A DNA stretch of 64,000 nucleotides from assembly GCA_041309005.1 (NCBI GenBank), contig JBFZAN010000075.1, positions 1,621 to 65,620 of the forward strand, written 5' to 3'. Position 1 is the first letter of the stretch. The number at the start of each line of letters is the position of its first letter. Source of the stretch: Candidatus Omnitrophota bacterium. GTDB lineage: Bacteria; Omnitrophota; Gorgyraeia; Gygaellales; Profunditerraquicolaceae. The notes under the pieces were generated by a model. The model was not told the DNA's origin and made no database searches. It was given only the letters and a program-made list of their open reading frames with translations. The translations under genes and the position numbers were made by a program. Below are positions 1 through 50,651 of the stretch, piece by piece.

Positions 1-749
1 GCGATATAGCCGCGGTGGTGGATGATATTGAAATTCTGATAGATAGGCACCAGGCAAAATACATTTTCTTTACCGATTCGGTTTTTAATGATACGGCAGG
101 GAATTACCTTTTACTCCTTGATGAAATGGAAAAAAGAAAGATCAGTATTCCCTGGACGGCATTTTTTAAGCCGCAAGGGTTAGACGGCAGGGCCATTGAG
201 TTAATGAAGAAAACCGGGTTAAAAGCTGCCGAGATTGGGGCGGATGCACCTACGGATACGACTTTGAAAGGCCTGGGCAAGACTTTCAGCTTTGCGGACG
301 TGATTGCCTGCAATGACCTGTTTGCCGGATACCAGATAGCCACAGCCCACTATTTTATGTTTGGTTGCCCCGCGGAAACTGAGAAGAGCGTGTTGGAGGG
401 AATAGAAAATATTAAAAGCCTGAAAAAAACCGTGTCTTTTATTTTTATGGGAATACGCATACTTCCAGGCACCCCGCTTGCTGATGTAGCGCAAAAAGAG
501 GGGGTCATTACGCCCGGCCAAGATTTGCTTGACCCGGTTTATTATATTGCCCCGGGAATAGACAGGGCTTGGCTCCAAAATGTTTTAACGGAGGCGTTTA
601 AAGGTATGCGCAATTGCGTTTTCCCTCCGGATGCTTTGGATAGCAGCCTCGCATTTTTACATAAATTAGGTTATTCCGGCTCTCTCTGGGATATGCTTAT
701 CCCGGGGAATTTCAAGCGTAAACGAAAGAGTGCAGATGCCAGAAAATAA
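1..749 (+). CDS. Radical SAM superfamily protein, C-terminal part (5-prime truncated by window edge; first in-frame GTG at 15)
   Basis: Reading frame is open to position 1. C-terminal region aligns by eye with the C-terminal half of the B12-radical SAM protein at 8594-10051 (FVDDxF...EM.KR.I...W.AF.KP.GLD...ELMKK.GL). The CxxxCxxC motif would lie upstream of the window. Confidence 0.5.
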   Translation, partial: DIAAVVDDIEILIDRHQAKYIFFTDSVFNDTAGNYLLLLDEMEKRKISIPWTAFFKPQGLDGRAIELMKKTGLKAAEIGADAPTDTTLKGLGKTFSFADVIACNDLFAGYQIATAHYFMFGCPAETEKSVLEGIENIKSLKKTVSFIFMGIRILPGTPLADVAQKEGVITPGQDLLDPVYYIAPGIDRAWLQNVLTEAFKGMRNCVFPPDALDSSLAFLHKLGYSGSLWDMLIPGNFKRKRKSADARK

Positions 750-1926
750 TGTTTTTTCCACAGGACATATTTGGTGCGCGATTCCGGCATTTAATAATAA
801 AGATACAGTACAAGCAGTTGCTTTAGGGTGCCGTCAGTATCTTGAACACGTTATTGTGATTGACGACGGATCTACTGATTGCGATATCAAGGCGCTATTA
901 CGCAATACGGATATAATTGTTTTAAGGCACGATAAAAATCTAGGCAAGGGCCGAGCCCTGCGCACAGCCTTGAGCTTTATCGAAAAAAAGGGGGGCGAAT
1001 TTATGCTGGCCATTGATGCTGACGGCCAGCACTATCCCGAGGGCATATTGGATTTTATTCCGTTGCTGCAAGATGATGTTGCTGCGATTATTGTGGGACG
1101 CCGCAATTTTAATCAGAAACAGGTGCCTTTCAATAGCCGTTTTGGCCGGAAGTTTTCTAATTTGTGGATTAAGCTTGAAACCGGCATAGGCATACATGAT
1201 TCGCAAAGCGGATTTCGCGCCTATCCGGTAAGATATATTTCCAAGATGAAGCTTAATGGTAATTATTACGATTTTGAGGTAGAAATTTTAGCCCGAGCTG
1301 TTTGGGCAGGGCTTAAACTGAAGGAGGTTCCGGTTAACGTATTTTATCCGGAAGCAAGGTTACGCGTTTCCAGCTTCCATCCATTTATTGATAACCTGCG
1401 TATCAGCCTTATGCATGCCCGCCTTATCGGGCGCAGGCTCGTGCCATTGCCTTATCCAAGGGTAGTGCCTTTAGAAAATAAAAATATCCAGATGGATATA
1501 ATCAGCCACCCTATAAAATTACTAAAAAGATTACTCAAAGAAAATTCAACTCCTTTAGACTTAGCTGTTTCTTCCGGCGTGGCTATTTTTTTAGGCGTGT
1601 TGCCGTTAGTTTCGGTCCATATGTTGGTAATTATGTATGTCACTAGCAGGCTGCATTTAAATAAAATAATGGCGTTAGCTATTCAGAATTTGTGTATGCC
1701 GCCGTTTGTGCCGATTGCCTGTATTGAGCTTGGCTTTTTTTTGCGCTACGGAAGGTGGCTTACTGACATCTCCTGGAAGACAACTTTTGGTTCAATCCCC
1801 CAGCGGTTATGGGAATGGTTCCTGGGGTCACTCATACTGGCGCCGATAATGGCGATATCCGTGGCCATTATCGTGTATGTTATAAGCCGGAGGATACAAA
1901 AAAGAACAGTCGGATATGCAAAATAA
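730..1926 (+). CDS. Family 2 glycosyltransferase with C-terminal polytopic membrane (DUF2062-like) domain
   Basis: N-terminal GT-A fold signatures (IPAFNN...VIVIDDGSTD, DADGQ DxD-like motif). C-terminal ~130 aa hydrophobic. Overlaps upstream gene by 20 nt. Confidence 0.7.
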   Translation: MQMPENNVFSTGHIWCAIPAFNNKDTVQAVALGCRQYLEHVIVIDDGSTDCDIKALLRNTDIIVLRHDKNLGKGRALRTALSFIEKKGGEFMLAIDADGQHYPEGILDFIPLLQDDVAAIIVGRRNFNQKQVPFNSRFGRKFSNLWIKLETGIGIHDSQSGFRAYPVRYISKMKLNGNYYDFEVEILARAVWAGLKLKEVPVNVFYPEARLRVSSFHPFIDNLRISLMHARLIGRRLVPLPYPRVVPLENKNIQMDIISHPIKLLKRLLKENSTPLDLAVSSGVAIFLGVLPLVSVHMLVIMYVTSRLHLNKIMALAIQNLCMPPFVPIACIELGFFLRYGRWLTDISWKTTFGSIPQRLWEWFLGSLILAPIMAISVAIIVYVISRRIQKRTVGYAK

Positions 1927-2827
1927 GGTACCGCCAGAGAAAGTATCCGCCCAAAAGAGGGGCAATAGGTTGGGTTTTTGGTTTTTTAAAGCCTGTGTGA
2001 AACTTTTTGGCTTATCCGGGGCGTATGGTTTGTTGTATTTTGTCTGCGCGCATTATTTGCTTTTTGATAAAAAAGCAGTAAAAAACGCGCTGGCGTATAT
2101 ACAAAGAAGATTTCCCGGATGCGGGTCGTTTGCAAGTTTTTTTAAGGTGTACCGCTTATTTGTCAGCCAGGGCAAACAGCTGATTGACCGTTTTGCCATT
2201 ATTTCCGGCAGCGCCATATTTGATATTGAGCTGAAAGGCTATGAACGCTTAAGTTCTTTATTAGCAGACAAAAATAAAGGCTTTGTCCTTTTGACTGCCC
2301 ATGTAGGCAGTTGGCAGGTAGCGTTAACTACTTTGAAAAAACTGCATAAGCCGGTGTATTTGGTAATGCGCCCGGAAGATAATGCCGCGGTAAGGGAATC
2401 TTTAAATATAGATGCCCAGGATGATTTTATCCGGGTCATTTCTCCCGAAGGGTATTTAGGAGGCGTGGTTGAGGCAATGAATGTGCTAAGGGAAGGTTGC
2501 ATTGTTTCAATCATGGGCGATCGTAAATACGGATTTGAGGGGATAGATATTTCTTTTCTAAAAGATAAGGCTTCTTTCCCTTTTGGAGCGTTTAGTATTG
2601 CCGCAAGCAGCAATTGCCCGGTAGTAGTGTTATTGTCCGCAAAATTACCCGGGCGTAAATACATTGTGGATGTATCGCATGTGTTAACCCCTCGTTACGA
2701 TGCAGCGAAGGATAAGAAGGAGCAGCTAAGGAAATATGTCCAGGAATTTGCCGGGGTTTTGGATAAATATATTGAAGAATACCCATACCAGTGCTTTTTA
2801 TTTTATGACGTCTGGAGAGTAGAGTAG
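1916..2827 (+). CDS. LpxL/HtrB-family (Lip_A_acyltrans) lysophospholipid-type acyltransferase
   Basis: N-terminal TM helix. LLTAHVGSWQ resembles the HxxxxE/D catalytic motif (HFGNWE) of lipid A late acyltransferases. ~300 aa. Confidence 0.6.
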   Translation: MQNKVPPEKVSAQKRGNRLGFWFFKACVKLFGLSGAYGLLYFVCAHYLLFDKKAVKNALAYIQRRFPGCGSFASFFKVYRLFVSQGKQLIDRFAIISGSAIFDIELKGYERLSSLLADKNKGFVLLTAHVGSWQVALTTLKKLHKPVYLVMRPEDNAAVRESLNIDAQDDFIRVISPEGYLGGVVEAMNVLREGCIVSIMGDRKYGFEGIDISFLKDKASFPFGAFSIAASSNCPVVVLLSAKLPGRKYIVDVSHVLTPRYDAAKDKKEQLRKYVQEFAGVLDKYIEEYPYQCFLFYDVWRVE

Positions 2828-2838
2828 GAGGAGAGAAA

Positions 2839-3120
2839 ATGGAAAGTAATAGAGAGCAGGGTTTAGCCGAAATTCGTAAGAAGCTAAAGCAACTTCTGGT
2901 TACCAGCCTGTCGCTTGAAGACATTAAGCCGGAGAATATCAAAGACGACGAAATTCTTTTTGGCGAAGGGCTGGGCCTGGATTCTTTGGATGCCGTTGAA
3001 ATTGTGGTTTTGCTGCAGCGGAATTTCGGCCTGGAAGTAAAAGACATGAATCAAGGAAAAAAGATTTTTTATTCCGTAGATACTCTGGCGAATTATATCT
3101 ACGAAAACCAAAAGGTTTAA
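2839..3120 (+). CDS. Acyl carrier protein
   Basis: 93 aa, acidic, LGLDSLDAVEIV phosphopantetheine attachment motif (DSL). RBS GGAGGAG 8 nt upstream. Confidence 0.8.
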   Translation: MESNREQGLAEIRKKLKQLLVTSLSLEDIKPENIKDDEILFGEGLGLDSLDAVEIVVLLQRNFGLEVKDMNQGKKIFYSVDTLANYIYENQKV

Positions 3121-3129
3121 CATTCGCGC

Positions 3130-4296
3130 TTGATGTATACTCCAGTTGTTATAAGCGGCATGGGCGCTCTATGCGCCGCGGGCAAAAACGTCGAGGAGAT
3201 ATTAGCGTCGTTTAGCGCAGGGCAGCGCGCTTTGCAGCCACCAATGCTTTTTCCTACCGCGCTGGATTATCCTGTATTTGAAGTAAAAGGATTCTCTTGT
3301 CCAACGGGCGTTATGCGTACGCTGGCGTTGGCATTTGCGGCAGCTGCTGAAAGCTTGCGGCACGCCGGTCTCCCGCAGAGTTTGCGCGGCATGCGCACAG
3401 GGGTGTGTCTGGGCACCACTGTAGCAAGCCAGCTTAATGACGAAAATTGGTATACTGAATATAAAACTACCGGTTCTGCGCCGCAGGAACCAGTTGATAT
3501 TTATTTGAAAGGAAATATTGCCGAGGCATTTACGGAAAAATTTAATATCAAGGGGCCGGCGCTGACAGTGGTAAATGCCTGTTCATCCGGAGCCGATGCC
3601 ATAGGCGTTGCTTTAAGTTGGTTACAAACCGATTTATGCGATATCGTGATTGCGGGAGGAGCGGATGAAATGAATCATGTGCCTTACTGCGGCTTTGGGG
3701 CTTTAGGAGTAACGAGTCGGCAACCGTGTATGCCTTTTGACCGTGACCGTAACGGGCTTAATCTCGGGGAAGGCGCCGGGATACTCATCCTTGAGAAAGA
3801 AACGCATGCCCGTAAACGAGGGAATCGTTCGATACTATACGTTACCGGATACGGCGCGGCTGCAGATGCTTATCATCTGACCGCGCCGCGACCAGACGGA
3901 ACTGGCTTAGAGATAGCAATTAGCAAGGCATTGCGGCAGGCGGGTATACAGGAGGCTGATATCGCGTTTATTAACGCGCATGGCACTGCCACGCGCGATA
4001 ACGATAAGGCAGAAGGCAGGCTTTTTAAGCGGATGTTCGGTCCGGATGTAAAGTTTATCTCAACTAAAGGTTTTACCGGCCACGCGCTGGGTGCCACCGG
4101 CGCAATGGAAGCCATATTTACAGCGCTCGGCTTAAGAGAAGGCTGGGTTCCGGCTAATATTGGATTCAGCCAGGTTGATGAAGAGATCGGTATTGCTCCG
4201 GTCAGGGAAAGAACAAATATTACAGGCGAGCATGCGCTCTCAACGTCTTTAGCATTCGGCGGCAACAATGCCGCACTCATTATTGAACGAAAATGA
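3130..4296 (+). CDS. Beta-ketoacyl-ACP synthase (FabF/FabB-like elongating KS)
   Basis: Active-site Cys in VVNACSSGADAIG. His-His pair (INAHGTAT, GHALGATGA). C-terminal FGGNNAALIIE typical of KAS I/II. Confidence 0.85.
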   Translation: MMYTPVVISGMGALCAAGKNVEEILASFSAGQRALQPPMLFPTALDYPVFEVKGFSCPTGVMRTLALAFAAAAESLRHAGLPQSLRGMRTGVCLGTTVASQLNDENWYTEYKTTGSAPQEPVDIYLKGNIAEAFTEKFNIKGPALTVVNACSSGADAIGVALSWLQTDLCDIVIAGGADEMNHVPYCGFGALGVTSRQPCMPFDRDRNGLNLGEGAGILILEKETHARKRGNRSILYVTGYGAAADAYHLTAPRPDGTGLEIAISKALRQAGIQEADIAFINAHGTATRDNDKAEGRLFKRMFGPDVKFISTKGFTGHALGATGAMEAIFTALGLREGWVPANIGFSQVDEEIGIAPVRERTNITGEHALSTSLAFGGNNAALIIERK

Positions 4297-5039
4297 TAAA
4301 TATTAACGGGATAGGCATCATTTGCAATTATGGCAGGGGGATTGACGCGGTTAAGCTCGCATTAGAGAATGGGCACACGCATGATATTTTCACTTCCAGA
4401 GTAAACGACGATATCCTTAAAGATAAAATCTTTTCCAAAGACGCCCGCCGCAGCGACCGGTTTGATCGAATGGCCGTCCTGGCAGCGCTTGACGCCATAT
4501 CTTCTTCCGGAATTAACAGTGAAGTTGAAACGAATAACATCGGCATAATTCTCGCTACCGGCTTTGGCCCGCATGTGACTACATTCCGCTTTTTAGATGA
4601 TATTCTTGCCTACAAAGAGCCTGATGTCTCTCCGATATTATTCTCGCATTCCGTGCATAACGCAGCTGTTTCTTATATTTCTTCGCTTGCCGGAGTACGC
4701 GGGCCGACTTTGACGGTTACCAGGTTTTTTCGCGCGTTTGACGAAGCGCTCTCACTCGCCAATGCATGGCTGGAGCAAAAAAGAGTGCGTTTCGTCCTTG
4801 TGGGAGCTGTTGATGAGCAGAGTAATAGTATGGAATATATTACAAAAACTAAGGCCGGAATTACGCTTGGCGAAGGGAGCGTATTTTTTGTTGTGAGCAA
4901 AGAAAAGTGTGCTAAAATTTATTTGAAGGTGGAGCCGCTCACAAGCCTAAGTGCTGCGGCAACGGCACCTATTCAGAGCGCGTTTAATTCTGCGGCAGCA
5001 ATTATACTAAAAATTTATAATAAAGATACACCCGACTGA
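4293..5039 (+). CDS. Ketosynthase N-terminal-domain-like protein lacking catalytic cysteine (chain-length-factor-like partner)
   Basis: ATGA overlap with the KS gene. Thiolase-fold N-domain-like sequence (GIILATGFGP...AGVRGPTLTV), but the position of the nucleophilic Cys reads TRFFRAF. Only 248 aa. Confidence 0.5.
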   Translation: MININGIGIICNYGRGIDAVKLALENGHTHDIFTSRVNDDILKDKIFSKDARRSDRFDRMAVLAALDAISSSGINSEVETNNIGIILATGFGPHVTTFRFLDDILAYKEPDVSPILFSHSVHNAAVSYISSLAGVRGPTLTVTRFFRAFDEALSLANAWLEQKRVRFVLVGAVDEQSNSMEYITKTKAGITLGEGSVFFVVSKEKCAKIYLKVEPLTSLSAAATAPIQSAFNSAAAIILKIYNKDTPD

Positions 5040-5050
5040 GGAGGGAAGAG

Positions 5051-5635
5051 ATGAAACAAAAATTGAATGTTTTCGCCTGCCTTACTTTTGCCTGCGCCTT
5101 GTTGATACCCGCACGTGCCTGTTATGCCGGAGAAAAAGGTACCGATAGCCCGGTTAATAAGGCCTATTATACCGCTGTGAATATTTGGGTCGAGGAAGCA
5201 GGACAAATCTTTACTACCAACTTTCATAAAGGAACGATACTTCCAATTAATACAAAAGTTAAGATTGCGGAATATAGCGGGAAGGGTTTTAGTTTTACCG
5301 ATGGAAAAGGAACTAAGTATAAAATAGTTTATATGGCAAAACATTCGAATTTGCCTGTAAAAGAAGTGTTTCAGAGATACTTCTCTGAAAAAGAAATTCC
5401 TCTTGGCAAATTCACTAGAGAAGAACGCAAGAATATTGAGGCAGGGACGATTGCCGTAGGCATGTCCAAGGATGCGGTGATTGCTGCGTATGGATATCCG
5501 CCCAGCCATCAGACGCCTTCTTTAGAGGGCAAGCAGTGGAAATACTGGCAGGATCGGGTGAGAAACTTTCTGGTGCTTTTTGATAAAGATAACAAAGTGG
5601 AAGTTCCTTCGGCTAGAAGGGAAGATATAAAGTAA
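5051..5635 (+). CDS. Secreted protein with BamE/SmpA_OmlA-like C-terminal domain
   Basis: Signal peptide MKQKLNVFACLTFACALLIPARACYAG. C-terminal GMSKDAVIAAYGYPPS...WKYW resembles the BamE fold motif. RBS GAGGAGGG upstream. Confidence 0.4.
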   Translation: MKQKLNVFACLTFACALLIPARACYAGEKGTDSPVNKAYYTAVNIWVEEAGQIFTTNFHKGTILPINTKVKIAEYSGKGFSFTDGKGTKYKIVYMAKHSNLPVKEVFQRYFSEKEIPLGKFTREERKNIEAGTIAVGMSKDAVIAAYGYPPSHQTPSLEGKQWKYWQDRVRNFLVLFDKDNKVEVPSARREDIK

Positions 5636-5884
5636 AGCGTGCGTATTTATTATAGGCCGGAAAGAAGAGGGGACAGTTTTGCTTTCTATCAATTTTAATT
5701 GAGAAGGAGGCGTATAGGCGCAAGGCAATTAATCGTATTGTTTTATCAATATGGTTATGAAGAAAGCCGGTATATGGCAAAACCCCGCATAGACCATCGT
5801 TGGATGCTTGCCTCTTTTTTGTGCGCCATAGGTCCAGCTTTTATATAAACTCATAGAGAAACACGCGTCTTATTAATTATATCA

Positions 5885-6127
5885 ATGACCCGGCGAGAAG
5901 TAGAAGAAATTCTTAAAAGAGAAATCCATATAATTCTTGGCGGCAATATAGAGGTGCGCCTGGATGAAGAACTCCACACTATAGGAATGGACTCTATGGG
6001 TTTTGTTGAACTCCTTGTGTTTATTGAGAAACGTTTTGGTATCCGGCTTATTGATTCAGGGCTTACCAAAGATGATTTTCGCACCGTGCGTTCCCTGGCA
6101 GAGTGCATTAGTAAAAAGACGGCCTAA
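5885..6127 (+). CDS. Acyl carrier protein (second copy)
   Basis: 80 aa, IGMDSMGFVELLVFIEKRFG with DSM Ser motif in the helix-2 position. Confidence 0.7.
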   Translation: MTRREVEEILKREIHIILGGNIEVRLDEELHTIGMDSMGFVELLVFIEKRFGIRLIDSGLTKDDFRTVRSLAECISKKTA

Positions 6128-7450
6128 ATGGTTTCCCTCCCGTATTCGCCCGACAAATATTACCTGGGCGGCCTTGACTGGATAATTCACGCTCTTAATT
6201 ATCTTTCCCGGAAAGCTACCGGCTGCGGCAATTTAAGCCAGGTAATCCTGCGGCTAAGCGTGCCGCTTGACGAAGCTATCCTAAAAGAAAAACTTACCTC
6301 TTTTATGTGCCTTTTTCCTTGCGCTCAAGGATGGGTTAGCCGCGATTATAACCTCGCCCCATATTGGAAATATCCGCGCCACGCAAAGCCGGTAATTGAA
6401 TTACGCTGCAAACGTTGCCAAGACAAGGAAGAAGCGTTTGCGGTTTTATTCAAAGCAGTAAATCTTCCGTTTAAAAGCAAGCAGGAGCATGTGCGTTTTT
6501 GTTGTGTCAGGACCCCGCAGGAGTGTTATTTTTCTCTTGTGTTTGACCATCGGCTTTTTGACGCGCGGGGAGCGGAGGATTTTTTATTCCTATTTAACGA
6601 ATTCTTTTGCGGCCGTTTTACCGTGAATGGAACCGTGCGTCCGGTTCAGGCAGCCGGGCTCTCGCATTGGAAAGAAAAGTTTCTTGCCGGCAAGCGGATT
6701 AACCGCCTGTTCATCGGGCTTTCCCACGGTGCAAGTGTCCGGCATATTCCCTTACCGGATAAGGCGCAAGGCGGGCATTTTCAATTCCGCGTCCTGACTT
6801 TCGGCAAGGACCAATCGCAGGCCATTACTGATAACGCGTATAATACTGCCGGTTATCTGATGCTTGCTCCGTATCTGTTGGCCGTAAGCTTATTGAGCGT
6901 ACGCGAGTGTTTCAAAGATTATCTGCAAGATGGTTCTGATTTCTTAGTGCCGCTAAATACTGACATCCGCAAGCGCCACAGCGGATTAAAACAATTATTT
7001 TTTAATCATCTATCATTCTTACTCCTGAGAATAAAAGATAAAGATATCCGTGCGAACAAAGAGTTCATATCCGAAGTCACCCGCGCCGTGTACAGTGAGA
7101 TGTCCAGCGGCTCAACATATGACCTTGAACAGGCAAGCCTCCTGCTGCGCATTGCGCCGCTCGTGATCCTTCAAGGCATTATCGGGTCTTTCATGCGTAA
7201 GCAGGCTGTTTCATTTGCCTTTTCTTATGTTAATAATAGTTCCGGTATCCGCGATTTTTGCGGCAGCCCTTTAGAAGAAATGATCCACACGCCACGCATG
7301 GCGCTTATGTCCGGTATCGGAGTGTTCTTCACGCAGTTTGCGGGCAATATTTCGGTGACACTGTCGTTTTTGAAAGGCCTGATTAAAGAGAAGGATGCCG
7401 AGCAGTTTATGGCACAATTGGAAGAAAGATTATTAACACGCTACACGTAG
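6128..7450 (+). CDS. Hypothetical protein, possible HxxxD-type acyltransferase (condensation/WS-DGAT-like superfamily)
   Basis: Starts immediately after the ACP stop. FDHRLFDARG resembles the HHxxxDG catalytic motif. No other recognisable motifs. Confidence 0.3.
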   Translation: MVSLPYSPDKYYLGGLDWIIHALNYLSRKATGCGNLSQVILRLSVPLDEAILKEKLTSFMCLFPCAQGWVSRDYNLAPYWKYPRHAKPVIELRCKRCQDKEEAFAVLFKAVNLPFKSKQEHVRFCCVRTPQECYFSLVFDHRLFDARGAEDFLFLFNEFFCGRFTVNGTVRPVQAAGLSHWKEKFLAGKRINRLFIGLSHGASVRHIPLPDKAQGGHFQFRVLTFGKDQSQAITDNAYNTAGYLMLAPYLLAVSLLSVRECFKDYLQDGSDFLVPLNTDIRKRHSGLKQLFFNHLSFLLLRIKDKDIRANKEFISEVTRAVYSEMSSGSTYDLEQASLLLRIAPLVILQGIIGSFMRKQAVSFAFSYVNNSSGIRDFCGSPLEEMIHTPRMALMSGIGVFFTQFAGNISVTLSFLKGLIKEKDAEQFMAQLEERLLTRYT

Positions 7451-7457
7451 AAGGATA

Positions 7458-8597
7458 ATGAATTATACCGTCATTGCAGGCGCTGGCCTTGCAGGAGTAT
7501 GTGCCGCGGTTAGTTGCGCGCGTCAAGGCAAGCGGGTAGTGCTGATTGAAAAAAACAGTTTCCCCGGAGGCATAGCCGTAATATTACAGCATCGGGTGTT
7601 GTGCGGCTTATATCCGAATACGCTTGAGCGTCCCAGTAAGTTTTTAAATAAAGGGATTACGCCGGAATTATGCCGCCTGCTTGCGCCTGGACAGAAGCCA
7701 TTGCGTATGGGCAGGGTATGGGTGCTTCCCTTTGACCCTGCGCGCCTGGCTTTGATATTGGCTGTTTTTTTAAAGCGCGAAAGAAATATTGAGGTATTGT
7801 ATGACACCGAGTTTAAGTCATGCGTATGTGAGAATAACAATATAACTGCTGTCATGCTTAAGCGCCGCAGCCGCAGGTTTACGCTGCGGCCGCGTATGGT
7901 TATCGATGCCGGCACCGGAAGTGTCGTGCAGAAGGCAGGAGCTGCTGTGCGCTTAGAGTCAAATGAGAAACGCCAGTTTGCCGGATACACTATGCTCGTA
8001 GGCGGAGTCCTGTTTAACGAGGAGCTTGCTATACGCGTTCCTTATTGTTTACGACAGGCTGTCGGGAAGGGGTTGTTTGAGCGCCATGCGCAGTTTACCC
8101 TCGTGTATCCCGGAATGAAAAAATCTGAATTATATATAAAATACGCTTTACCTGTGGATACGGATGTTTCTGCAGCAAAGCGAGTGGCAGGCACTCTTTT
8201 AAGGTTTCTTATGCAAAACATTGTTGATTTTAAACGCAGCCGCGTTCTCTGGCAGGCGAAACAGGCATGTAACCGGGATTGCGCGCGGCTTTCGGGTGCG
8301 TATGTGATGAAGGCGCGCGATGTGCTTTCAGGCAGGAAATTCAGCGATGCCGTTATAAACGGCGCATGGCCCGTGGAATCCTGGAATATGGCGGGCGGTT
8401 TGCAATACTCTTATGTCGCAAACGGCTATTATCAGGTTCCACCTGGAGCGTTAAGGGCGAAGCGCATAAAGAATCTGTTCGCATGCGGGCGCTCTACGGC
8501 AGCGGACGGTGTCGCCGCAGCCACTCTGCGCGCTGGCGGCATGTGCATGGCAACAGGCGAAGCCGCAGGCCGCGCGGCAGCAGAGCAGGGAACATGA
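7458..8597 (+). CDS. FAD-dependent oxidoreductase
   Basis: N-terminal Rossmann dinucleotide motif VIAGAGLAGVCAA...VVLIEK. C-terminal GRSTAADGVAAATLRAGG typical of FAD oxidoreductases. Confidence 0.65.
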   Translation: MNYTVIAGAGLAGVCAAVSCARQGKRVVLIEKNSFPGGIAVILQHRVLCGLYPNTLERPSKFLNKGITPELCRLLAPGQKPLRMGRVWVLPFDPARLALILAVFLKRERNIEVLYDTEFKSCVCENNNITAVMLKRRSRRFTLRPRMVIDAGTGSVVQKAGAAVRLESNEKRQFAGYTMLVGGVLFNEELAIRVPYCLRQAVGKGLFERHAQFTLVYPGMKKSELYIKYALPVDTDVSAAKRVAGTLLRFLMQNIVDFKRSRVLWQAKQACNRDCARLSGAYVMKARDVLSGRKFSDAVINGAWPVESWNMAGGLQYSYVANGYYQVPPGALRAKRIKNLFACGRSTAADGVAAATLRAGGMCMATGEAAGRAAAEQGT

Positions 8598-10051
8598 AAA
8601 TCTTACTGGTAAAGCCATTTTCGGAGTTGTTGGTAGCAAAGCGCCTAGAAGAAGGGTTCTTGCGTCTTGAGCCGCTGGGCTTAGAAATTGTGGCTGGAGG
8701 CGTACCGCAGGAGGATGATGTCCGCATTCTTGATTTGGGTTTATACAAAGATCCGGTGCGCAAGTTTGAAGAAACTGTGCGCGGGTATCTGCCCGATATA
8801 GTCGGTTTTTCCGCCTATAGCTCTATGGTCGGAACAGTGAAACAGCTCAGCTGCAGTGCGAAAAAAATAGATTCGGGTATTAAAATAGTTGTCGGGGGCA
8901 TTCATGCGACAGTCGTTCCCGCTGATTTCAATGATCCGTTTATAGATATTGTAGTTCGCGGAGAAGGTGGCACCGCTATGCGCGAGATTATCCGAAGGCA
9001 TAAGAATAACGAGCCGTTATATTTCAGTGACATTGCTTTTGCTCCGGCCGCACCTGATTTTACCGTTAAAGCCGCGTCTGCTCCGCCGTCTTATCCGGAC
9101 GTCCGCGATATACCGCGGCCAAGGCGTGATCTGGTTGAAAGAACCCGCTATTTTTGTGTGTGGACAAGGAGCGATACTAACCGGTTGGACCATCTTTTTC
9201 CGCAGGTAGCAAGTATGCGCACTTCGATTGGCTGCGCGTATTCCTGCTCGTTTTGCGTGATACATTACCTGATGAACGGTAAATATCTTAAACGCGACCC
9301 GGAAGATGTGGTTGATGAGATTGCCGGTATCCGCGAAGACTATATCTATTTTGTGGATGATGAGATGTTTTTGGATGCCGCGCGCGTGCGGCGTATTGCG
9401 GAGATGCTGAAAGAAAAAGGCATCCGCAAACATTATATCAGTTGGGCGCGCAGTGATACGATTGTTCGTTATCCGGAAGTCTTTAAACTGTGGAAGGAAA
9501 TAGGGCTTGATGTGGTGTATGTTGGCCTTGAGTCAGTTGATGAATCTCGCCTCGCCGAGTACGCTAAACGCACCAGCATTGATACGAACCGCCGGGCAGT
9601 TAACATTTTAAAGGATTTTGGTATTATGCTGCACGCAGCTTTTATCGTGCACCCTGATTTTGAGGCAGATGATTTCTGCCGGCTTGAGGCTGAGATCAAG
9701 CGCATAAGCCCTGCGGAAATTACTTTTACCGTGCTTTCTCCGTCTCCGGGTACGAAATTCTGGAACGATAATAGAAATAGATTTATCTGCGACCCCTACC
9801 GGTTTTATGACTGCATGCACACGATTCTACCCGCGCGGTTACCTTTGCGGCGCTTCTACCAGCATTTTGGAAAGCTGACCAGCCTTGCGCTGCGCGCAAA
9901 TCCCTTGCGTATGCAGCGTATCCGCGTGCCGTTGCCTGATTTTTTGAGGGCGGTTTTTTGCGGGACCAGGTATATTTTTTCGCTCTACTCAATTTATAAA
10001 GACTACAAAGGCTTGCTAAAAGACGAGCTTATTTACGGAAAACACGCCTAA
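8594..10051 (+). CDS. B12-binding domain radical SAM protein
   Basis: Start corrected to the ATG at 8594 (ATGA overlap with upstream stop); the track ORF 8279.. is a spurious 5-prime extension. N-terminal cobalamin-binding domain (MKILLVKP...LGLEIVAGGV...DVRILD). CxxxCxxC cluster SIGCAYSCSFCV. Confidence 0.8.
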   Translation: MKILLVKPFSELLVAKRLEEGFLRLEPLGLEIVAGGVPQEDDVRILDLGLYKDPVRKFEETVRGYLPDIVGFSAYSSMVGTVKQLSCSAKKIDSGIKIVVGGIHATVVPADFNDPFIDIVVRGEGGTAMREIIRRHKNNEPLYFSDIAFAPAAPDFTVKAASAPPSYPDVRDIPRPRRDLVERTRYFCVWTRSDTNRLDHLFPQVASMRTSIGCAYSCSFCVIHYLMNGKYLKRDPEDVVDEIAGIREDYIYFVDDEMFLDAARVRRIAEMLKEKGIRKHYISWARSDTIVRYPEVFKLWKEIGLDVVYVGLESVDESRLAEYAKRTSIDTNRRAVNILKDFGIMLHAAFIVHPDFEADDFCRLEAEIKRISPAEITFTVLSPSPGTKFWNDNRNRFICDPYRFYDCMHTILPARLPLRRFYQHFGKLTSLALRANPLRMQRIRVPLPDFLRAVFCGTRYIFSLYSIYKDYKGLLKDELIYGKHA

Positions 10052-10055
10052 GTTT

Positions 10056-11480
10056 ATGAACATCGTCAAATCATTGATTGCCGAGAATTCCGGTTATGAC
10101 GGTACAGCCGTTATTGAAGGCGATTCTATTATTACCTATCAGGAATTGTTTAGGCGGGTTACGGCCGCTGCAGATGAATTTTGTTCGAGGGGATTGCGCG
10201 AGAAGGCGTGCGTTGCTTTAATGCTGCGCGGAGGCATTGAATATATTATTGTCAATCTTGGGTTACTTTCCGCAGGCGCCGTGGTTATGCCGATACCGGA
10301 AAATTCTCCCGATGAAGAGGTAAAAGAAATTATCGCCATAACGCGGCCCGATGCGGTCATTATTTCAAGGGCACTTCCCGGAGTTGACGCTGAGCCGATA
10401 CTGGAAGGCGCGTTTCATAAAACTCTGCGTATTTTTTATCCCAGTCGCGCCAATAATCGGAGGCGGCAGTTTTTGAAGGACCAAGATGGCGCATTTATTC
10501 GTTTTTCATCGGGAACAACCGGTGCATGCAAAGGGGTCGTATTGTCTCACCGGGCAATTTTCGAGCGTACTGACGCCGCGGACCGTGCCTTACAAATACG
10601 CCGCAGCGACCGCATTTTATGGGTCTTATCCATGAGCTTTCACTTCGTAGTGACGATACTGTTGTTTTTGCGCCGGGGGGCAACGATTATCGCGTGCGAA
10701 GAAAATTTTCCCGATTCTGTGGCAGCGGCAGTTGGCCGGACAAAGCCGACTTTTATATACGCAGCGCCGTTTCATTACGATTCGCTCGCCAGTATGAAAG
10801 TTGTTACAAAGGAGGCTCTTGGCGGAGTGCGCCTTGCTATATCAACTGCCGTGGCGTTATCGCCTATTACGGCTAAGCGCTTCTATGATGTATTCGGGAT
10901 ACTGCCGTCTCAGGCCTATGGAATTATTGAAGTCGGGCTTGTGGCTGTGAATACCTCGCAAGACTTTTCCAAGGCGCTTTCCGTTGGCAAAGTATTGCCC
11001 GATTACCAGCTTAAATTCGCTAATATCAGAAATGATGGCGCTGGCCGGATCCTCCTGAAGGGCAAGGGCATATTTGATGCCTACCTTTATCCGCTGCGAA
11101 AAGCAGGCAAAATCTTCAGAAACGGCTGGTTTAATACCGGAGATATCGGCCGAATTGACCAAGACGGATACTTATATATTACCGGCCGTACAAAAAATAT
11201 CATAAATTTCTGCGGAATGAAGGTTTTTCCCGAGGAGGTCGAGGCTGTCTTGAATCGATATCCGCAGGTGAAAGAGTCGCGGGTGTATGGCGTAGGGCAC
11301 GCAGAATACGGGCAGCTTGTTTATGCCGATATTGTTCCTGAAGTAAAAACGATTAATATTGGATCGTTGCGCTTATTTTGTTACCGGGAGCTGGCTAAAT
11401 ATAAAGTCCCTAAATATTTTCAGGTAGTTTCCTCTTTACCAAAAACCAAGAGCGGAAAGATAAAACGTATTGTAGTTTAA
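10056..11480 (+). CDS. AMP-dependent synthetase/ligase (fatty acyl-AMP/ACP ligase type)
   Basis: AMP-binding motif FSSGTTGACKGVVLSH. Core motifs YGIIEVG, TGDIGRIDQDGYLYITGRTKN, and C-terminal Lys in PKTKSGKIKR. Confidence 0.8.
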   Translation: MNIVKSLIAENSGYDGTAVIEGDSIITYQELFRRVTAAADEFCSRGLREKACVALMLRGGIEYIIVNLGLLSAGAVVMPIPENSPDEEVKEIIAITRPDAVIISRALPGVDAEPILEGAFHKTLRIFYPSRANNRRRQFLKDQDGAFIRFSSGTTGACKGVVLSHRAIFERTDAADRALQIRRSDRILWVLSMSFHFVVTILLFLRRGATIIACEENFPDSVAAAVGRTKPTFIYAAPFHYDSLASMKVVTKEALGGVRLAISTAVALSPITAKRFYDVFGILPSQAYGIIEVGLVAVNTSQDFSKALSVGKVLPDYQLKFANIRNDGAGRILLKGKGIFDAYLYPLRKAGKIFRNGWFNTGDIGRIDQDGYLYITGRTKNIINFCGMKVFPEEVEAVLNRYPQVKESRVYGVGHAEYGQLVYADIVPEVKTINIGSLRLFCYRELAKYKVPKYFQVVSSLPKTKSGKIKRIVV

Positions 11481-11677
11481 GCGCGCTCTATTATCGGCAT
11501 GCCTAAAGAAAATTCCTTATATAAAAATAGGAAAACTTGTTAAATCTGATTTAAGAGAGCTTTATGACGATAAACAATCGGGTAACAACCAGGCTCGAAG
11601 TTAGCCTTGCAATAAAAGATAAATTGTTGTAACATATTGATATATCTACGGGAAAAAGAATCAATTTTGCAGAATCC

Positions 11678-11822
11678 CTGCCTCTCCGATTATTCCCTAT
11701 AATTGAACAGAGGCGGTCTTTAGCATATCCGATAACCCGAGACCTGCCTCTTCGATTATTCCCTATTATTGAATAGAGGCGGTCTTCAGCATATCAGATT
11801 ACCCGAGACCCGCTTCTGCGCT
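11678..11822. repeat. Tandem array of ~66-nt two-hairpin units (2 full + 1 degenerate), same family as 49535-49752
   Basis: Unit consensus c(t/a)gcctctccgat-loop-ttgaa(t/c)agag(g/a)cggtct-loop-cgagac. Unit boundaries 11678, 11744, 11810. Confidence 0.8.
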
Positions 11823-11864
11823 ATGTTTTTCAGGTGAACCCCGCTTGAGGAAAAAAGTTCTTGT

Positions 11865-13196
11865 ATGAAAGATTATTTCAACGTTTTCCTATACCGCTTC
11901 AGGACGGCAGATCCGGTACGGTTGGTAGTTGCGGGATATATGTCCTATATCTTTATAGGGTTTATCCTGTTGTGCCTTCCGTTTATGCACAAAAATTTCG
12001 TCCATCCCCTGGATAATCTTTTTATCGCCACTTCCGCAGTTTCTACAACCGGGCTAACAACGGTCACGGTGAGCAACGATTATAATTTCTGGGGACAGTT
12101 AGTCATTCTTGTCCTTATCCAGTTGGGCGGTATCGGGTACATGACTTTTAGTTCCTTTGTAATTTTATCTACCAAGAAATATCTTGATGACCACACAAAG
12201 AATATCGCTCATGTTGTATTCAGTATCCCCAAAAACTTCAAAATTGAGAAGTTTATTCTAAGTGTCATCGGATTTTCGGCCGTGGTTGAAATGCTGGGAG
12301 CAATAGGGTTATTTTTTGTATTTTGGCAGGCAGGAGTGGAGAATCCTTTTTGGAAGGCTATATTCCACAGTGTTTCGGCTTTTTGCACTGCCGGATTCAG
12401 CCTGTTTCCTAACAGCTTTGAAGGGTTTTCAAATAATTTCAGCCTTAATGCCATTATTTCTGTGTTGAGCATACTGGGCGCAATGGGATTTATTGTTTGC
12501 GTTGATGTTGTGCGGCTCATCCAGGGTAAAGAAAAGCACGTTACGTTGACTACAAAGGTCATTCTTTCAATAACATTTTGGCTCCTTTTGATCGGATCAG
12601 TGTTGATGTTCCTGACTGAAATCTACGGAGGCGGGGTTGCATCACAAAACAGAATAATGTATTCATTCTTTCAAGCTATGACGGCCCTTACAACAGTGGG
12701 ATTCAATACCATCACGGTCAGCACAATGTCTAAATCAGCTATTATGCTTATATGTATATTGATGATTATAGGTGCTTCGCCGGCAGGTACCGGTGGTGGG
12801 TTGAAGACTACCACATTTTCAGCAATCTGGGGATTAATGAAAAGCGCCATCAAGGGCAATAAAAGCGTGCGCATATTAGGAGCCACAGTACCGGATGACC
12901 GGGTTAGAACAGCTGTGGCAACTTTGAGTTTTTATATATCGACCTTGCTGGTCGGAACGTATCTGCTCACTTTGACGGAGAATGGCTCGTTTATCGATAT
13001 CTTTTTCGAAGCAGCTTCTGCTTTGGGAACTGTCGGCTTGAGCATGGGCATTACTGTGGCGTTGTCAGTATTGGGAAAACTTGTAATAATCATATTGATG
13101 TATATAGGTCGTGTCGGGCCTTTGACATTCGGCATGGCATTTTATGTGAAGCCTGAGCTTATATTTGATGACGAAAAAACTGATTTGGCGGTATAA
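11865..13196 (+). CDS. trkH: TrkH/KtrB-family potassium uptake membrane protein
   Basis: Repeated M1PM2 selectivity-filter-like motifs (TTGLTTVT, TAGFS, GASPAGTGGGLKTTTF, GTVGLSMG). Polytopic. Confidence 0.8.
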   Translation: MKDYFNVFLYRFRTADPVRLVVAGYMSYIFIGFILLCLPFMHKNFVHPLDNLFIATSAVSTTGLTTVTVSNDYNFWGQLVILVLIQLGGIGYMTFSSFVILSTKKYLDDHTKNIAHVVFSIPKNFKIEKFILSVIGFSAVVEMLGAIGLFFVFWQAGVENPFWKAIFHSVSAFCTAGFSLFPNSFEGFSNNFSLNAIISVLSILGAMGFIVCVDVVRLIQGKEKHVTLTTKVILSITFWLLLIGSVLMFLTEIYGGGVASQNRIMYSFFQAMTALTTVGFNTITVSTMSKSAIMLICILMIIGASPAGTGGGLKTTTFSAIWGLMKSAIKGNKSVRILGATVPDDRVRTAVATLSFYISTLLVGTYLLTLTENGSFIDIFFEAASALGTVGLSMGITVALSVLGKLVIIILMYIGRVGPLTFGMAFYVKPELIFDDEKTDLAV

Positions 13197-48818: not shown

Positions 48819-48892
48819 GCGCCCATAGCTCAATTGGATAGAGCACTTGCCTACGGAGCAAGTTGTTGTTGGTTCGATTCCAACTGGGCGCA
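48819..48892 (+). tRNA. tRNA-Arg (anticodon ACG)
   Basis: Manual fold: acceptor GCGCCCA/TGGGCGC. D-arm GCTC-AATTGGATA-GAGC. Anticodon stem CTTGC/GCAAG with loop CTACGGA (U33, ACG, G37). Variable TTGTT. T-arm GTTGG-TTCGATT-CCAAC. Discriminator A. No encoded CCA. Confidence 0.85.
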
Positions 48893-48968
48893 TTACCTTA
48901 TATGTATCCGCCCGTCCTGAGCGAAGCGAGGGGCTGGGCGCATTACCTTATATGTATCCGCCCGTCCT
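48884..48968. repeat. Perfect 35-bp direct repeat (CTGGGCGCATTACCTTATATGTATCCGCCCGTCCT) x2, 50-bp period; first copy begins inside the 3-prime end of tRNA-Arg
   Basis: Copies at 48884-48918 and 48934-48968, separated by gagcgaagcgagggg. Second copy ends 6 nt before the tadA start. Confidence 0.9.
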
Positions 48969-48974
48969 CCACCG

Positions 48975-49439
48975 ATGTCCAAAATAGATTCCCTCTACAT
49001 GTCCGAGGCTTTAAAAGAGGCAAAAAAAGCCTTTGACAAAGACGAAGTGCCCGTGGGCTGCGTGATCGTGCACGGCAATAAGATCATCGCGCGGGCGCAC
49101 AATGAAGTCGAGCAGTTAAAAGACCCCACCGCGCACGCTGAAATGCTCGCCATCACTTCCGCGACGCACTATCTCAATTCAAAGTGGTTGAATGAGGCTT
49201 CTTTATATGTTACAATTGAACCTTGTAGCATGTGCGCGGGCGCGATGGTGTTGGCGCGGATAAAGGCCGTGGTCTACGGCGCCGACGACCCCAAGACAGG
49301 CGCCTGCGGTTCGGTGGTAGATCTGCTTCGCCATAAGAAGCTCAATCATCGCGCGCAGGTCAGAAAAGGGGTACTGCGGGACGCATGCGCGGCGCTGCTG
49401 AAAGAATTCTTCAAGAAAAAAAGAGCCGAAAGAAATTAA
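48975..49439 (+). CDS. tadA: tRNA-specific adenosine deaminase
   Basis: CDA-fold zinc motifs HAEMLAI and PCSMCAGAM. 154 aa. Confidence 0.85.
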   Translation: MSKIDSLYMSEALKEAKKAFDKDEVPVGCVIVHGNKIIARAHNEVEQLKDPTAHAEMLAITSATHYLNSKWLNEASLYVTIEPCSMCAGAMVLARIKAVVYGADDPKTGACGSVVDLLRHKKLNHRAQVRKGVLRDACAALLKEFFKKKRAERN

Positions 49440-49456
49440 AAGCGGTGATGATATTT

Positions 49457-49545
49457 GGAGAGGTGGCTGAGCGGTCGAAAGCAATTCACTGCTAATGAAT
49501 TGGCCTGGGAAACCGGGCCCCTGGGTTCAAATCCCAGCCTCTCCG
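49457..49545 (+). tRNA. tRNA-Ser (anticodon GCU), long variable arm
   Basis: Manual fold: acceptor GGAGAGG/CCTCTCC. Anticodon stem ATTCA/TGAAT with loop CTGCTAA (U33, GCT, A37). Long variable arm TTGGCCTGGGAAACCGGGCCCC. T-arm TGGG-TTCAAAT-CCCA. Discriminator G. Confidence 0.8.
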
Positions 49546-49752
49546 ATAATATTGCTCGTTGAGTAGAGGCGCTCTGCATCTCCCTAGGAGTCCGAGAGCA
49601 GCCTCTCCGATAATTTCAGATTGTTGAATAGAGACGGTCTGCGTCGCACCTGGTAGCCAGAGACCAGCCTCTCCGATTACTTTGCTCGTTGAATAGAGAC
49701 GGCCTGCGTCTCCTCAGGAGTCAGAGGCCAGCCTCTGCGCCATTGTTGACGC
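49535..49752. repeat. Tandem array of 64-66-nt two-hairpin units (3 full + 1 degenerate) whose first unit is the 3-prime end of tRNA-Ser; same family as 11678-11822
   Basis: Units start at 49535, 49599, 49665, 49729, each beginning CAGCCTCTCCGAT (= tRNA-Ser 3-prime 13 nt). Hairpin 2 shows compensatory changes (gctct/agagc, ggtct/agacc, ggcct/aggcc). Confidence 0.85.
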
Positions 49753-49811
49753 TCAGGCGAACCCTGACAGGCGTTATAAGCCAGGGGCGCCATGAGTTGA
49801 AGTGAAGAAGC

Positions 49812-50651
49812 ATGAACAAAGAAATAAGCACAACTAAAATAGCAATTTTCAGGAAACGAGAGATCAGAAAGGCCATTCATAACAATGAATGGTGGTTTGC
49901 GGTCGTTGATGTAGTTGCGGCATTAACAGATTCTGTCCAGCCGGATGGCTATATCAAAGATATGCGTAGGCGTGATCCGGAGCTTTCCAAAGGGTGGGGG
50001 CAAATTGCCACCCCCCTTTCAGTAAAGACGCCGGGTGGCATCCAAAAGCTCAATTGTGCTAATACGGAAGGTATCTTTCGTATTATCCAGTCTATTCCAT
50101 CCCCAAAGGCTGAGCCGTTCAAGCGGTGGTTGGCTCGGGTCGGTTACGAGCGGATTCAGGAGATTGAGAACCCGGAGCTTGCCACAAAGAGAACGAGAGC
50201 TTTATATAAGGCAAAAGGGTATAGCGATGAATGGATCGAAAAACGGATGCGAGGGATCGCTATCCGTGAGGAGTTGACTGGCCAGTGGCAGAAGCGCGGC
50301 ATAAGGGAGCAAAAGGAATACGAAATATTAACTGCTGAAATTTCAAAAGCAACGTTCGGCATGACGCCTTCTGCTTACAAAAAGCACAAGGGTTTGAAAC
50401 GCGAGAATTTGCGGGATCATATGACTGATCTGGAGCTTATCTTTTCGATGCTTGGCGAGGCATCAACGAAAGAGATAGCCGTCAATAAAAACGTTCAGGG
50501 GTTTGTAGAAAATAAAAAAGCCGCGTTTGAGGGCGGCGCTGTGGCGGGCAACGCGAGAAATGAATTGGAACGCAAAAGCGGCAAGAAAGTTATCAGCAAA
50601 GAAAATTATAAAAAGTTGCCGCAGAGTGAGAAATTTTTAAGGGGTAAATAA
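49812..50651 (+). CDS. Bro-N domain protein (phage antirepressor/DinD-like)
   Basis: N-terminal IAIFRKREIRKAIHNNEWWFAVVDVVAALTDS matches the Bro-N consensus (F..IR.....EPWF.A.DVA.AL). C-terminal KilA-C/DinD-like region. Confidence 0.6.
   Translation: MNKEISTTKIAIFRKREIRKAIHNNEWWFAVVDVVAALTDSVQPDGYIKDMRRRDPELSKGWGQIATPLSVKTPGGIQKLNCANTEGIFRIIQSIPSPKAEPFKRWLARVGYERIQEIENPELATKRTRALYKAKGYSDEWIEKRMRGIAIREELTGQWQKRGIREQKEYEILTAEISKATFGMTPSAYKKHKGLKRENLRDHMTDLELIFSMLGEASTKEIAVNKNVQGFVENKKAAFEGGAVAGNARNELERKSGKKVISKENYKKLPQSEKFLRGK

Follow-up and report, generated by a model that had tools for sequence, protein, structure and literature searches.

Tandem hairpin repeats of a Candidatus Omnitrophota genome as probable tRNA-linked repeats at an old integration scar

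A family of short tandem repeats is found in a stretch of 64,000 nucleotides (nt) from a Candidatus Omnitrophota bacterium (assembly GCA_041309005.1, contig JBFZAN010000075.1). The whole of this stretch is called the window here, and positions are counted from its first letter. The repeats belong to a single family and form two arrays, both on the plus strand and about 38 kb apart. Array A is flanked by an AMP-ligase gene (10056-11480) on the left and by trkH on the right, while array B starts at 49534, inside the gene for tRNA-Ser(GCU), and ends next to the leader of a Bro-N/DinD-like gene (Table 1). Tandem Repeats Finder (TRF) places array A at 11677-11817 (period 66, 2.1 copies, 89% matches, score 226) and array B at 49534-49736 (period 65, 3.1 copies, score 242). 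With their tails, the arrays cover 11677-11842, with two full units, and 49534-49766, with three. With up to 2 mismatches allowed, the core motif GCCTCTCCGATWAT is found 6 times for 1.04 expected; TTGAATAGAGRCGGTCT, with up to 3, is found 5 times for 0.23 expected. Neither count was reached by any shuffle. An earlier note on this DNA had described two arrays of one repeat family, the first of them between the AMP-ligase gene and trkH. TRF and the motif counts agree on the family, and the gene calls on the position. In what follows, we describe the units and their two junctions, which together indicate that the arrays are probably tRNA-linked repeats (TLRs) born at an old integration scar of a mobile element.

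Each 64-66-nt unit is made up of a 52-54-nt interior that can form hairpins and of a 12-nt copy of the tRNA-Ser 3' end (CCWGCCTCTCCG). As described earlier, there are two hairpins per unit, with their arms located as claimed. In array A, hairpin 1 has the arms GCCTCT/AGAGGC (11680-85/11709-14 and 11746-51/11775-80), and hairpin 2 has the arms GGTCT/AGACC (11715-19/11740-44 and 11781-85/11806-10). The loop of hairpin 2 measures 20 nt, in keeping with the rough figure of 20 first given for it, and that of hairpin 1 measures 23 nt instead of the 22 reported. The 12/13 match to the 3' end of tRNA-Ser(GCU) (CTGCCTCTCCGAT against the tRNA's CAGCCTCTCCGAT) is likewise right for unit A1 only, as unit A2 matches at 11/13. 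When units of array A are compared to those of array B, 13-15 of the 16 nt made up of the core plus AU are identical, as are 12-13 of the 15 in the central block TTGAAYAGAGRCGGYCT, 4-7 of the 12 in the hairpin 1 loop, and 5-9 of the 20 in the hairpin 2 loop. The loops have therefore diverged to 25-58% identity while the stems and the central block are kept. Within the arrays, the B units are 74-80% identical to one another, which argues that this array is old, and A1 and A2 are 91% identical, which argues that array A is young and remains polymorphic.

Hairpin 2 is 100% paired in six distinct units (five full units and one strain variant). Its changes comprise two compensatory pairs (G-C to C-G and U-A to C-G) and one C-G to U.G. 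This level of pairing and covariation is reached by 16 of 500 shuffles, and slid controls all come out far lower. The plus strand of both arrays folds better than shuffled sequence (z = -5.1 for A and -3.5 for B), and also better than the minus strand, with mixed z-scores for the single units (-3.4 to -0.4). Two partners are equally open to the AGAGGC arm, namely the GCCUCU within its unit, which gives hairpin 1, and that of the next core. In the second case hairpin 2 is extended to an 11-bp helix with one bulge (AGAGGC-GGUCU..AGACC-w-GCCUCU). The pairing data favour neither of these two folds of the unit. The minimum-energy folds vary as well, with two hairpins in A2, hairpin 1 in A1 and B2, a long hairpin in B1, and neither in B3. 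In B2 and B3, a C.A mismatch interrupts the outer helix. In its long form, the modeled helix would have the topology of a tRNA acceptor/T-arm minihelix, which is a resemblance only.

The units appear to be non-coding: open reading frames (ORFs) of at least 20 amino acids overlap the arrays with none repeated across units, and the 52-54-nt segments between cores have stop codons in all frames and no conserved ORF. On the plus strand, no promoter-like or terminator-like consensus site was found in or beside the arrays, nor any terminator-like site between the tRNA and the Bro-N gene or upstream of trkH. A role as promoter or intrinsic terminator was rejected, since such sites are absent from this strand. 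Three other identities were tried and rejected. Rfam has no match to any small RNA family over either array, at the gathering threshold or at E<=10, so no known RNA family accounts for them. The units are not internally deleted mini-tRNA-Ser genes, as similarity to the tRNA body is not significant on either strand. Nor are they decayed duplicates of the tRNA end with the Bro-N leader or element arm, as local alignments score like shuffles (lowest p about 0.10).

In both arrays, what had been taken for a degenerate terminal unit is instead an old tRNA 3' end (..CTCTGCGCCA, with CCA, decayed to CTA in A) fused to TTGTTGACGCTCAGGCGAACCC. The latter is a conserved end of an integrative element, which in relatives is found directly 3' of the CCA of intact tRNAs. 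Array B closes (49728-49766) with CCAGCCTCTGCG-CCA-TTGTTGACGCTCAGGCGAACCCTG, a piece that is 95% identical over 39 nt to locus L110 and 89% identical over 54 nt to locus L126. In these two loci, the match spans the actual tRNA-Ser(GCU) 3' end, its CCA encoded, and the region downstream of it. A ..CCGCCA/TTGTTGAYGCTCAGGYGAACCC junction is also present after tRNA-Ser(GCU) in L178, after tRNA-Asp(GUC) in L176 and L177, and after a tRNA-like remnant in L179, and each of these four junctions leads to a Bro-N gene 92-94% identical to that of the window. The 24-nt arm TTGTTGACGCTCAGGCGAACCCTG occurs again in L110 (5312-5335) and in seven IMG/VR contigs (L188-L194; e.g., L188:1147-1170). In five of the seven it comes after the CCA of tRNA-Ser(GGA), Ser(CGA), Arg(UCU), or Glu(UUC), and the other two are cut within tRNA-like sequence. 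The same CCA-arm junction is thus seen behind six different tRNA species. In the two contigs checked (L188 and L192), the gene beside the junction codes on the minus strand for a large serine recombinase with Resolvase, Recombinase, and Zn_ribbon_recom domains. Because the same sequence starts right after the CCA of varied tRNAs, and because a serine recombinase adjoins it, TTGTTGACGCTCAGGCGAACCCTG looks like the arm nearest the tRNA in a family of Omnitrophota integrative elements whose insertion sites are tRNA CCA ends, an arrangement comparable to the serine-recombinase islands at ssrA in Dehalococcoides (PMC3146451). As the terminal piece consists of an old tRNA end and an element arm, the discriminator base of tRNA-Ser(GCU) is parted from the gene's former CCA end by the three B units (192 bp). 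The resident tRNA gene now ends in ..CCG followed by AT, and its CCA is not encoded. About a dozen related tRNA-Ser(GCU) genes likewise end without an encoded CCA, so this absence is evidently tolerated.

Locus A has kept both flanks of such a junction. Its tail, CCCGCTTCTGCG-CTA-TGTTTTTCAGGTGAACCCC, can be aligned to that of array B as well as to the tRNA-CCA/TTGTTGACGCTCAGGCGAACCC junctions found in L126 and L110, and a C-to-G change (TCTGCGC) in the displaced core is common to both arrays. The head of locus A, GAATCCCTGCCTCTCCG, gives a 17/17 match to the tRNA-Ser 3' ends of eight other Omnitrophota loci, from the T-loop to the discriminator, and has one mismatch with the resident tRNA-Ser(GCU). 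The earlier note had stated that no tRNA is present here; indeed no intact one is called, but a 17-nt fragment of a tRNA-Ser 3' end remains. It had also concluded that the motif propagates independently of an intact tRNA, and this is not shown, as locus A has the tRNA fragment, the element-end scar, and the shared C-to-G change. With all three there, locus A is a copy or relic of the whole junction, and not a lone unit that has moved. As they share the C-to-G change, A and B descend from a single ancestral composite, made up of a core, an interior, a mutated core with CCA, and an element arm. Locus A is thus an orphan copy of the whole composite, from the tRNA 3' end through the units and the old CCA end to the element arm. 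It could have been separated from its tRNA as the attR end of a later island inserted in the T-loop of a tRNA-Ser (att, attachment site), or by segmental transfer. The fragment GAATCCCTGCCTCTCCG shares its start base with the 20-nt direct repeats that bound an islet at locus L140 (4573-4592 and 5618-5637), and is 17/17 identical to 5618-5637. A single 38-kb island running from A to B, bounded by two copies of the tRNA end, is ruled out by geometry: integration into the 3' end would leave the fragment downstream of the intact tRNA, and it is found upstream, with the same orientation.

Table 1. Positions of the repeat units, their flanks, and the adjoining genes in the window. The B units are listed in the register of tRNA-linked repeats, with the interior first and the core last.
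Feature	Position	Strand	Description
Head of locus A	11672..11688	+	17-nt tRNA-Ser 3' fragment GAATCCCTGCCTCTCCG, T-loop to discriminator; last 12 nt are core copy 1
Unit A1, 66 nt	11677..11742	+	core CCTGCCTCTCCG, then hairpin 1, then hairpin 2
Unit A2, 66 nt	11743..11808	+	core CCTGCCTCTTCG; 91% identical to A1
Tail of locus A	11809..11842	+	decayed old tRNA 3' end CCCGCTTCTGCG and CTA (from CCA), then decayed start of the putative element arm TGTTTTTCAGGTGAACCCC
trkH/ktrB	11865..13196	+	Pfam TrkH, E=1.6e-52; array A in its upstream/leader region
tRNA-Ser(GCU)	49456..49546	+	ARAGORN; Rfam 60.5 bits; last 12 nt (49534-49545, CCAGCCTCTCCG) are core copy 0 of array B
Unit B1	49546..49609	+	52-nt interior, then core GCAGCCTCTCCG at 49598-49609
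Unit B2	49610..49675	+	54-nt interior, then core CCAGCCTCTCCG at 49664-49675
Unit B3	49676..49742	+	52-nt interior, then displaced old tRNA 3' end CCAGCCTCTGCG and CCA, 49728-49742
Putative integrative-element arm and leader	49743..49811	+	arm TTGTTGACGCTCAGGCGAACCCTG 49743-49766, then structured leader of the Bro-N gene
Bro-N/DinD-like gene	49812..50651	+	Pfam Bro-N; at the tRNA-proximal end of the element scar

Both arrays recur in other assemblies. Locus B is identical base for base in one NCBI metagenome-assembled genome (MAG) and two Logan assemblies of the same species, and locus A is found in at least six MAGs of that species, with two or three units depending on the MAG. It follows that the arrays are not an assembly artefact, which was one of the outcomes that the earlier note had allowed for. 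The three-unit allele of A is carried by contigs L001 and L195, where the extra unit is a perfect copy of A1, and L002 and L003 have a C-to-T change in hairpin 2 of this locus. Four Logan contigs end within the repeat.

Further copies were sought in several ways. The pattern GCCTCTYCGATN{10,16}TTGARYAGAGRCG has no match in 185,579 species genomes and none in IMG/VR viral contigs. In metagenome contigs, two tandem cores (GCCTCTCCGATN{40,70}GCCTCTYCGAT) are found at 82 loci, all of them unrelated coding or simple repeats. When the unit interiors were searched with blastn-short against 1.16 Mb of retrieved loci, only same-species assemblies matched, and a covariance model built on six units (R1), run on the window and 66 loci (531 kb), matched only arrays A and B. 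On present data, which comprise the 64-kb window, related loci, and public collections, the family is confined to these two loci. The earlier note had said that it would count against the family if just two loci were found with no structural covariation across more copies. The first is what the searched data give and the second is not, since hairpin 2 has its two compensatory pairs.

The surroundings of tRNA-Ser(GCU) can be compared across the phylum, as the best relatives of TadA (56-76% identity) come nearly all from Candidatus Omnitrophota MAGs. The order tRNA-Arg(ACG)-tadA-tRNA-Ser(GCU) (48819-49546 in the window; L092-L144) is kept in most of about 50 Omnitrophota loci, with tadA sandwiched between tRNA-Ser(GCU) and tRNA-Arg(ACG), the TadA substrate. 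At about 45 Omnitrophota tRNA-Ser(GCU) loci, there is no second copy of the tRNA 3' end within 700 nt downstream, and no comparable tandem repeat downstream of the tRNA. In many of these loci, dnaX follows some 20-150 nt after tRNA-Ser. In the window, array B, the Bro-N/DinD-like gene, and an ORF with a Cache domain stand between tRNA-Ser and dnaX-recR. The Bro-N/DinD-like protein is 79-94% identical to members of more than 100 protein clusters, as against a maximum of 76% for TadA. In five of the five relatives examined, its gene comes directly after a tRNA CCA or, in L179, after a tRNA-like ..CCGCCA end. Its leader is conserved and can form a long hairpin (GCTCAGGCG..CCCTGGC..GCCAGGG..CGCC.TGAGC). 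From these contexts, the gene appears to be a mobile cassette associated with tRNA ends.

Other structures occur at tRNA genes outside the window. In L140 (4573-5637), a low-GC islet of about 1 kb follows tRNA-Ser(GCU), with a perfect 20-nt direct repeat of the tRNA 3' end, GAATCCCTGCCTCTCCGCCA, at both bounds; it has every appearance of a textbook att-flanked insertion at the same hot spot. In L188, the large serine recombinase ORF runs across the tRNA. Five loci (L099, L101, L123, L125, and L128) show, by eye, a hairpin within 40 nt after tRNA-Ser(GCU), whose 5' arm takes in the last bases of the tRNA (e.g., CCGCCATTTTTGC-TTC-GCAAAAATGGC). In another Omnitrophota MAG, a 46-nt tandem repeat of 2.9 copies (L132:3808-3942) lies about 40 nt after tRNA-Arg(ACG), and each of its units holds ATTCCTGC(C), the T-loop/T-stem 3' part of that tRNA. 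This may be a second, unrelated tRNA-linked repeat in the phylum.

On the side of locus A, relatives of trkH with 86-93% identity have no array upstream, and their upstream regions are unrelated. As the contexts of trkH differ wholly between close relatives, this gene may move as a cassette. In L181 and L182, where trkH is 88% identical to that of the window, the 35-nt sequence ATAATTCAGACCGTTTCCGCGGAATTCCGGGGAAG stands on either side of the gene, at about 1880-1915 and about 3350-3385. To the left of array A, positions 1-11480, and some 2.5 kb more in L195, hold a lipid or polyketide-like gene cluster that ends at the array. It includes genes for a GT2-DUF2062 protein, a lipid A-type acyltransferase, two acyl carrier proteins, ketosynthase pairs, a flavin adenine dinucleotide (FAD) oxidoreductase, B12-binding radical S-adenosylmethionine enzymes, and the AMP-ligase. 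Its GC content is 44-50%, compared to 50-57% right of about 14 kb.

Taken together, the arrays are probably tRNA-linked repeats born at an old mobile-element integration scar. A first interior would have come to be flanked by two copies of the tRNA 3' end through recombination at the integration hot spot. Amplification would then have occurred separately in A and B, by unequal crossing-over or replication slippage between the 12-16-nt direct repeats. Because the arrays are on the coding strand, and because no terminator-like site was found on it, they are probably transcribed, array B as a 3' trailer of pre-tRNA-Ser that runs into the Bro-N gene and array A as a trkH leader. In such a transcript, each unit would repeat the context of tRNA 3'-end processing, that is, a helix, then CCTCTCCG, then AUWAU. 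Since the unit repeats this context and can form a minihelix-like fold, its most likely activity would be passive or regulatory trailer processing by the tRNA 3'-end machinery, which would yield hairpin RNAs of about 65 nt, a route also proposed for the TLRs of Escherichia coli.

Several points weigh against this reading. Transcription and processing of the arrays are predicted from the sequence. The covariation rests on five distinct full units, or six with the strain variant, and a level attained by 16 of 500 shuffles is not strong; besides, intrastrand template switching in a palindrome can also leave changes that look compensatory, though no selection has acted. With 12 nt, the repeated core is shorter than the 18-19 nt of the E. 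coli TLRs. The interior has no detectable source, being unlike the element arm, the Bro-N leader, and the tRNA body. No tRNA lies within 14.2 kb upstream of locus A (in L195), the side on which the attR reading would place one. Finally, a larger dispersed family is compatible with the searches, which covered the 64-kb window of this genome.

The strongest of the other explanations, which we regard as possible though clearly the less likely, overlaps with the preceding one and adds to it a selected function. The unit would be a functional structured RNA, with minihelix-like hairpins that RNase P, RNase Z, or RNase E-type enzymes would cut out of the pre-tRNA-Ser trailer and the trkH leader, and that would act as small RNAs, decoys, or cis-regulators of Bro-N and trkH. 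This would account for stems and a TTGAAYAGAGRCGGYCT block that are kept from A to B while the loops drift, for the two compensatory pairs of hairpin 2 and its U.G change, which pairs only in plus-strand RNA, and for the survival of array B, which is old and not lost despite its flanking direct repeats. Both arrays lie 22-70 nt upstream of a gene on the same strand, and three E. coli TLRs (RrA/B/F) are processed small RNAs that bind Hfq and CsrA (PMC8144298). The contrast between stems and loops and the age of array B do suggest some constraint on the hairpins. Caution on selection is nevertheless called for: the sample is tiny, with two loci and five or six units, and a homologue is found in no other species among the relatives searched, so that conservation extends over one species. 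There is also no Rfam match even at the loosest threshold used, the per-unit z-scores are mixed, the minimum-energy folds vary between units, and the outer helix is mismatched in two of them.

A stronger form of this idea is unlikely. It makes the units lineage-specific tRNA-minihelix mimics, templated on the acceptor end of tRNA-Ser, cut by RNase P/RNase Z, and selected, with roles in Bro-N/trkH coupling or in integration immunity. If so, expression of the element-borne Bro-N gene and of trkH would possibly be coupled to tRNA processing. Alternatively, the units would remodel the 3' flank of the tRNA gene: with its CCA lost and another sequence in place of the B' arm, the gene would no longer be an attB site for the elements that target tRNA CCA ends, which would amount to a form of integration immunity.

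We consider it more doubtful still, and very improbable, that the unit is a non-autonomous mobile element targeting tRNA-Ser-like sequence and present in many further genome copies, in the manner of miniature inverted-repeat transposable elements (MITEs), BOX elements, or repetitive extragenic palindromic (REP) sequences. In favour of this, the family occupies two loci 38 kb from each other, one of which has no tRNA, and the modular layout of head, n units, and tail recalls the A-Bn-C design of pneumococcal BOX elements. But the covariance model finds no third copy in the window or in the 531 kb of related loci, the unit pattern is absent from the species genomes and IMG/VR, and the metagenome scan returns only unrelated repeats. 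Locus A also carries the flanks of B (tRNA fragment, old CCA end, and element arm), which would not have come along with a transposed unit. Neither terminal inverted repeats nor a target-site duplication were recognised in the sequence, so that of the marks of a MITE (these two and many dispersed copies) none was seen, two loci having been found in the data searched.

Least likely of all is that the arrays are recombination sites, with reiterated att cores and protein-binding arms, which a site-specific recombinase would use or would have created as miniature att-flanked elements accreted in tandem, much as in arrays of cis-mobilisable elements (CIMEs) or of islands at ssrA. The integration hot spot itself is demonstrated, with an arm that follows tRNA CCA ends, a large serine recombinase adjoining in L188 and L192, and the L140 islet between its tRNA-Ser direct repeats, and in Dehalococcoides a series of 20-bp direct repeats bounds tandem islands at ssrA (PMC3146451). 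However, a 65-bp segment would be too short to circularise and integrate, judging from DNA stiffness, the units lack the GCCA/TTG junction that marks the element's site, and there is no recombinase among the 34 Pfam-annotated ORFs of the window (around the arrays and in the left 15 kb, with 15.5-46 kb not annotated). Serine recombinases leave only a 2-bp crossover, not 12-nt repeats.

Among known systems, the TLRs of E. coli are the closest kind, and the arrays are an analogue or variant of them, not a homologous member, because any relation in sequence or in Rfam is absent. These repeats were reportedly described by Egan and Landy in 1978 and by Rudd in 1999, e.g., as 178-bp repeats with the RttR/RtT RNA downstream of tyrT-tyrV. 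As a control, the same tools were applied to E. coli MG1655: they recover 3.1 copies of the 178-bp unit downstream of tyrV, and the last 19 nt of tRNA-Tyr, from AATCC in the T-loop, match 19/19 at four positions. The annotated RttR small RNA lies within this repeat region. [quoted passage not shown] Array B likewise lies directly downstream of its tRNA on the same strand, which array A, with its 17-nt fragment only, does not. The number of tandem units per locus is in the same range (two or three in A, three in B), the units close with a copy of the tRNA's 3' end, here a shorter one, and both kinds are non-coding. The repeated tail of the E. coli units starts in the T-loop (AATCC..), as does the head of locus A. 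The units differ in length, about 100-180 nt in E. coli as against 64-66 nt here, and so does the repeated tRNA end, which is 18-19 nt with CCA in E. coli and here 12 nt without CCA (11-12 of 12 identical in B). The hosts are an enterobacterium on the one side and a Candidatus Omnitrophota MAG on the other. Unlike those of E. coli, one of the arrays here is orphaned from its tRNA, and their origin is readable, with array B wedged between a discriminator and an older CCA fused to what looks like an element arm.

Two other kinds of repeat share part of this design. [quoted passage not shown] They bound gene islands on the kilobase scale, whereas the cores here are 65 nt apart and enclose a gene-free interior with conserved hairpins. 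Gene-carrying segments between the repeats, the mark of att-bounded islands, are absent from A and B and present at L140:4573-5637. The regular period and the similarity within each array argue for tandem duplication over successive integrations. BOX, REP, and MITE repeats are similarly short, hairpin-forming, intergenic, and modular, with a middle module that is tandemly reiterated. Those families have tens to hundreds of scattered copies, without a tRNA 3' end. Here two loci are known, both with tRNA-junction flanks. An array of clustered regularly interspaced short palindromic repeats (CRISPR) was rejected, since the whole unit is repeated within each array and unique spacers are absent; no Cas-family Pfam match was found among the annotated flanking genes.

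The tRNA-linked repeats of E. coli have been known since 1978, and their origin and function are still unexplained. The Omnitrophota arrays provide an independent example of the TLR type in a distant, uncultured phylum, outside the enterobacteria. The surviving old CCA end and the putative element arm would link the origin of the repeats with recombination at a hot spot of tRNA integration and with later unequal crossing-over. With their heavily diverged loops and their kept stems, the two arrays also form a small test set for selection on hairpins. If processed unit RNAs exist, a general role for TLR-type trailers would be supported; otherwise, the arrays are a tidy genomic scar. Their interest for specialists is modest, and their main value is that, compared to the repeats of E. 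coli, their origin can be read.

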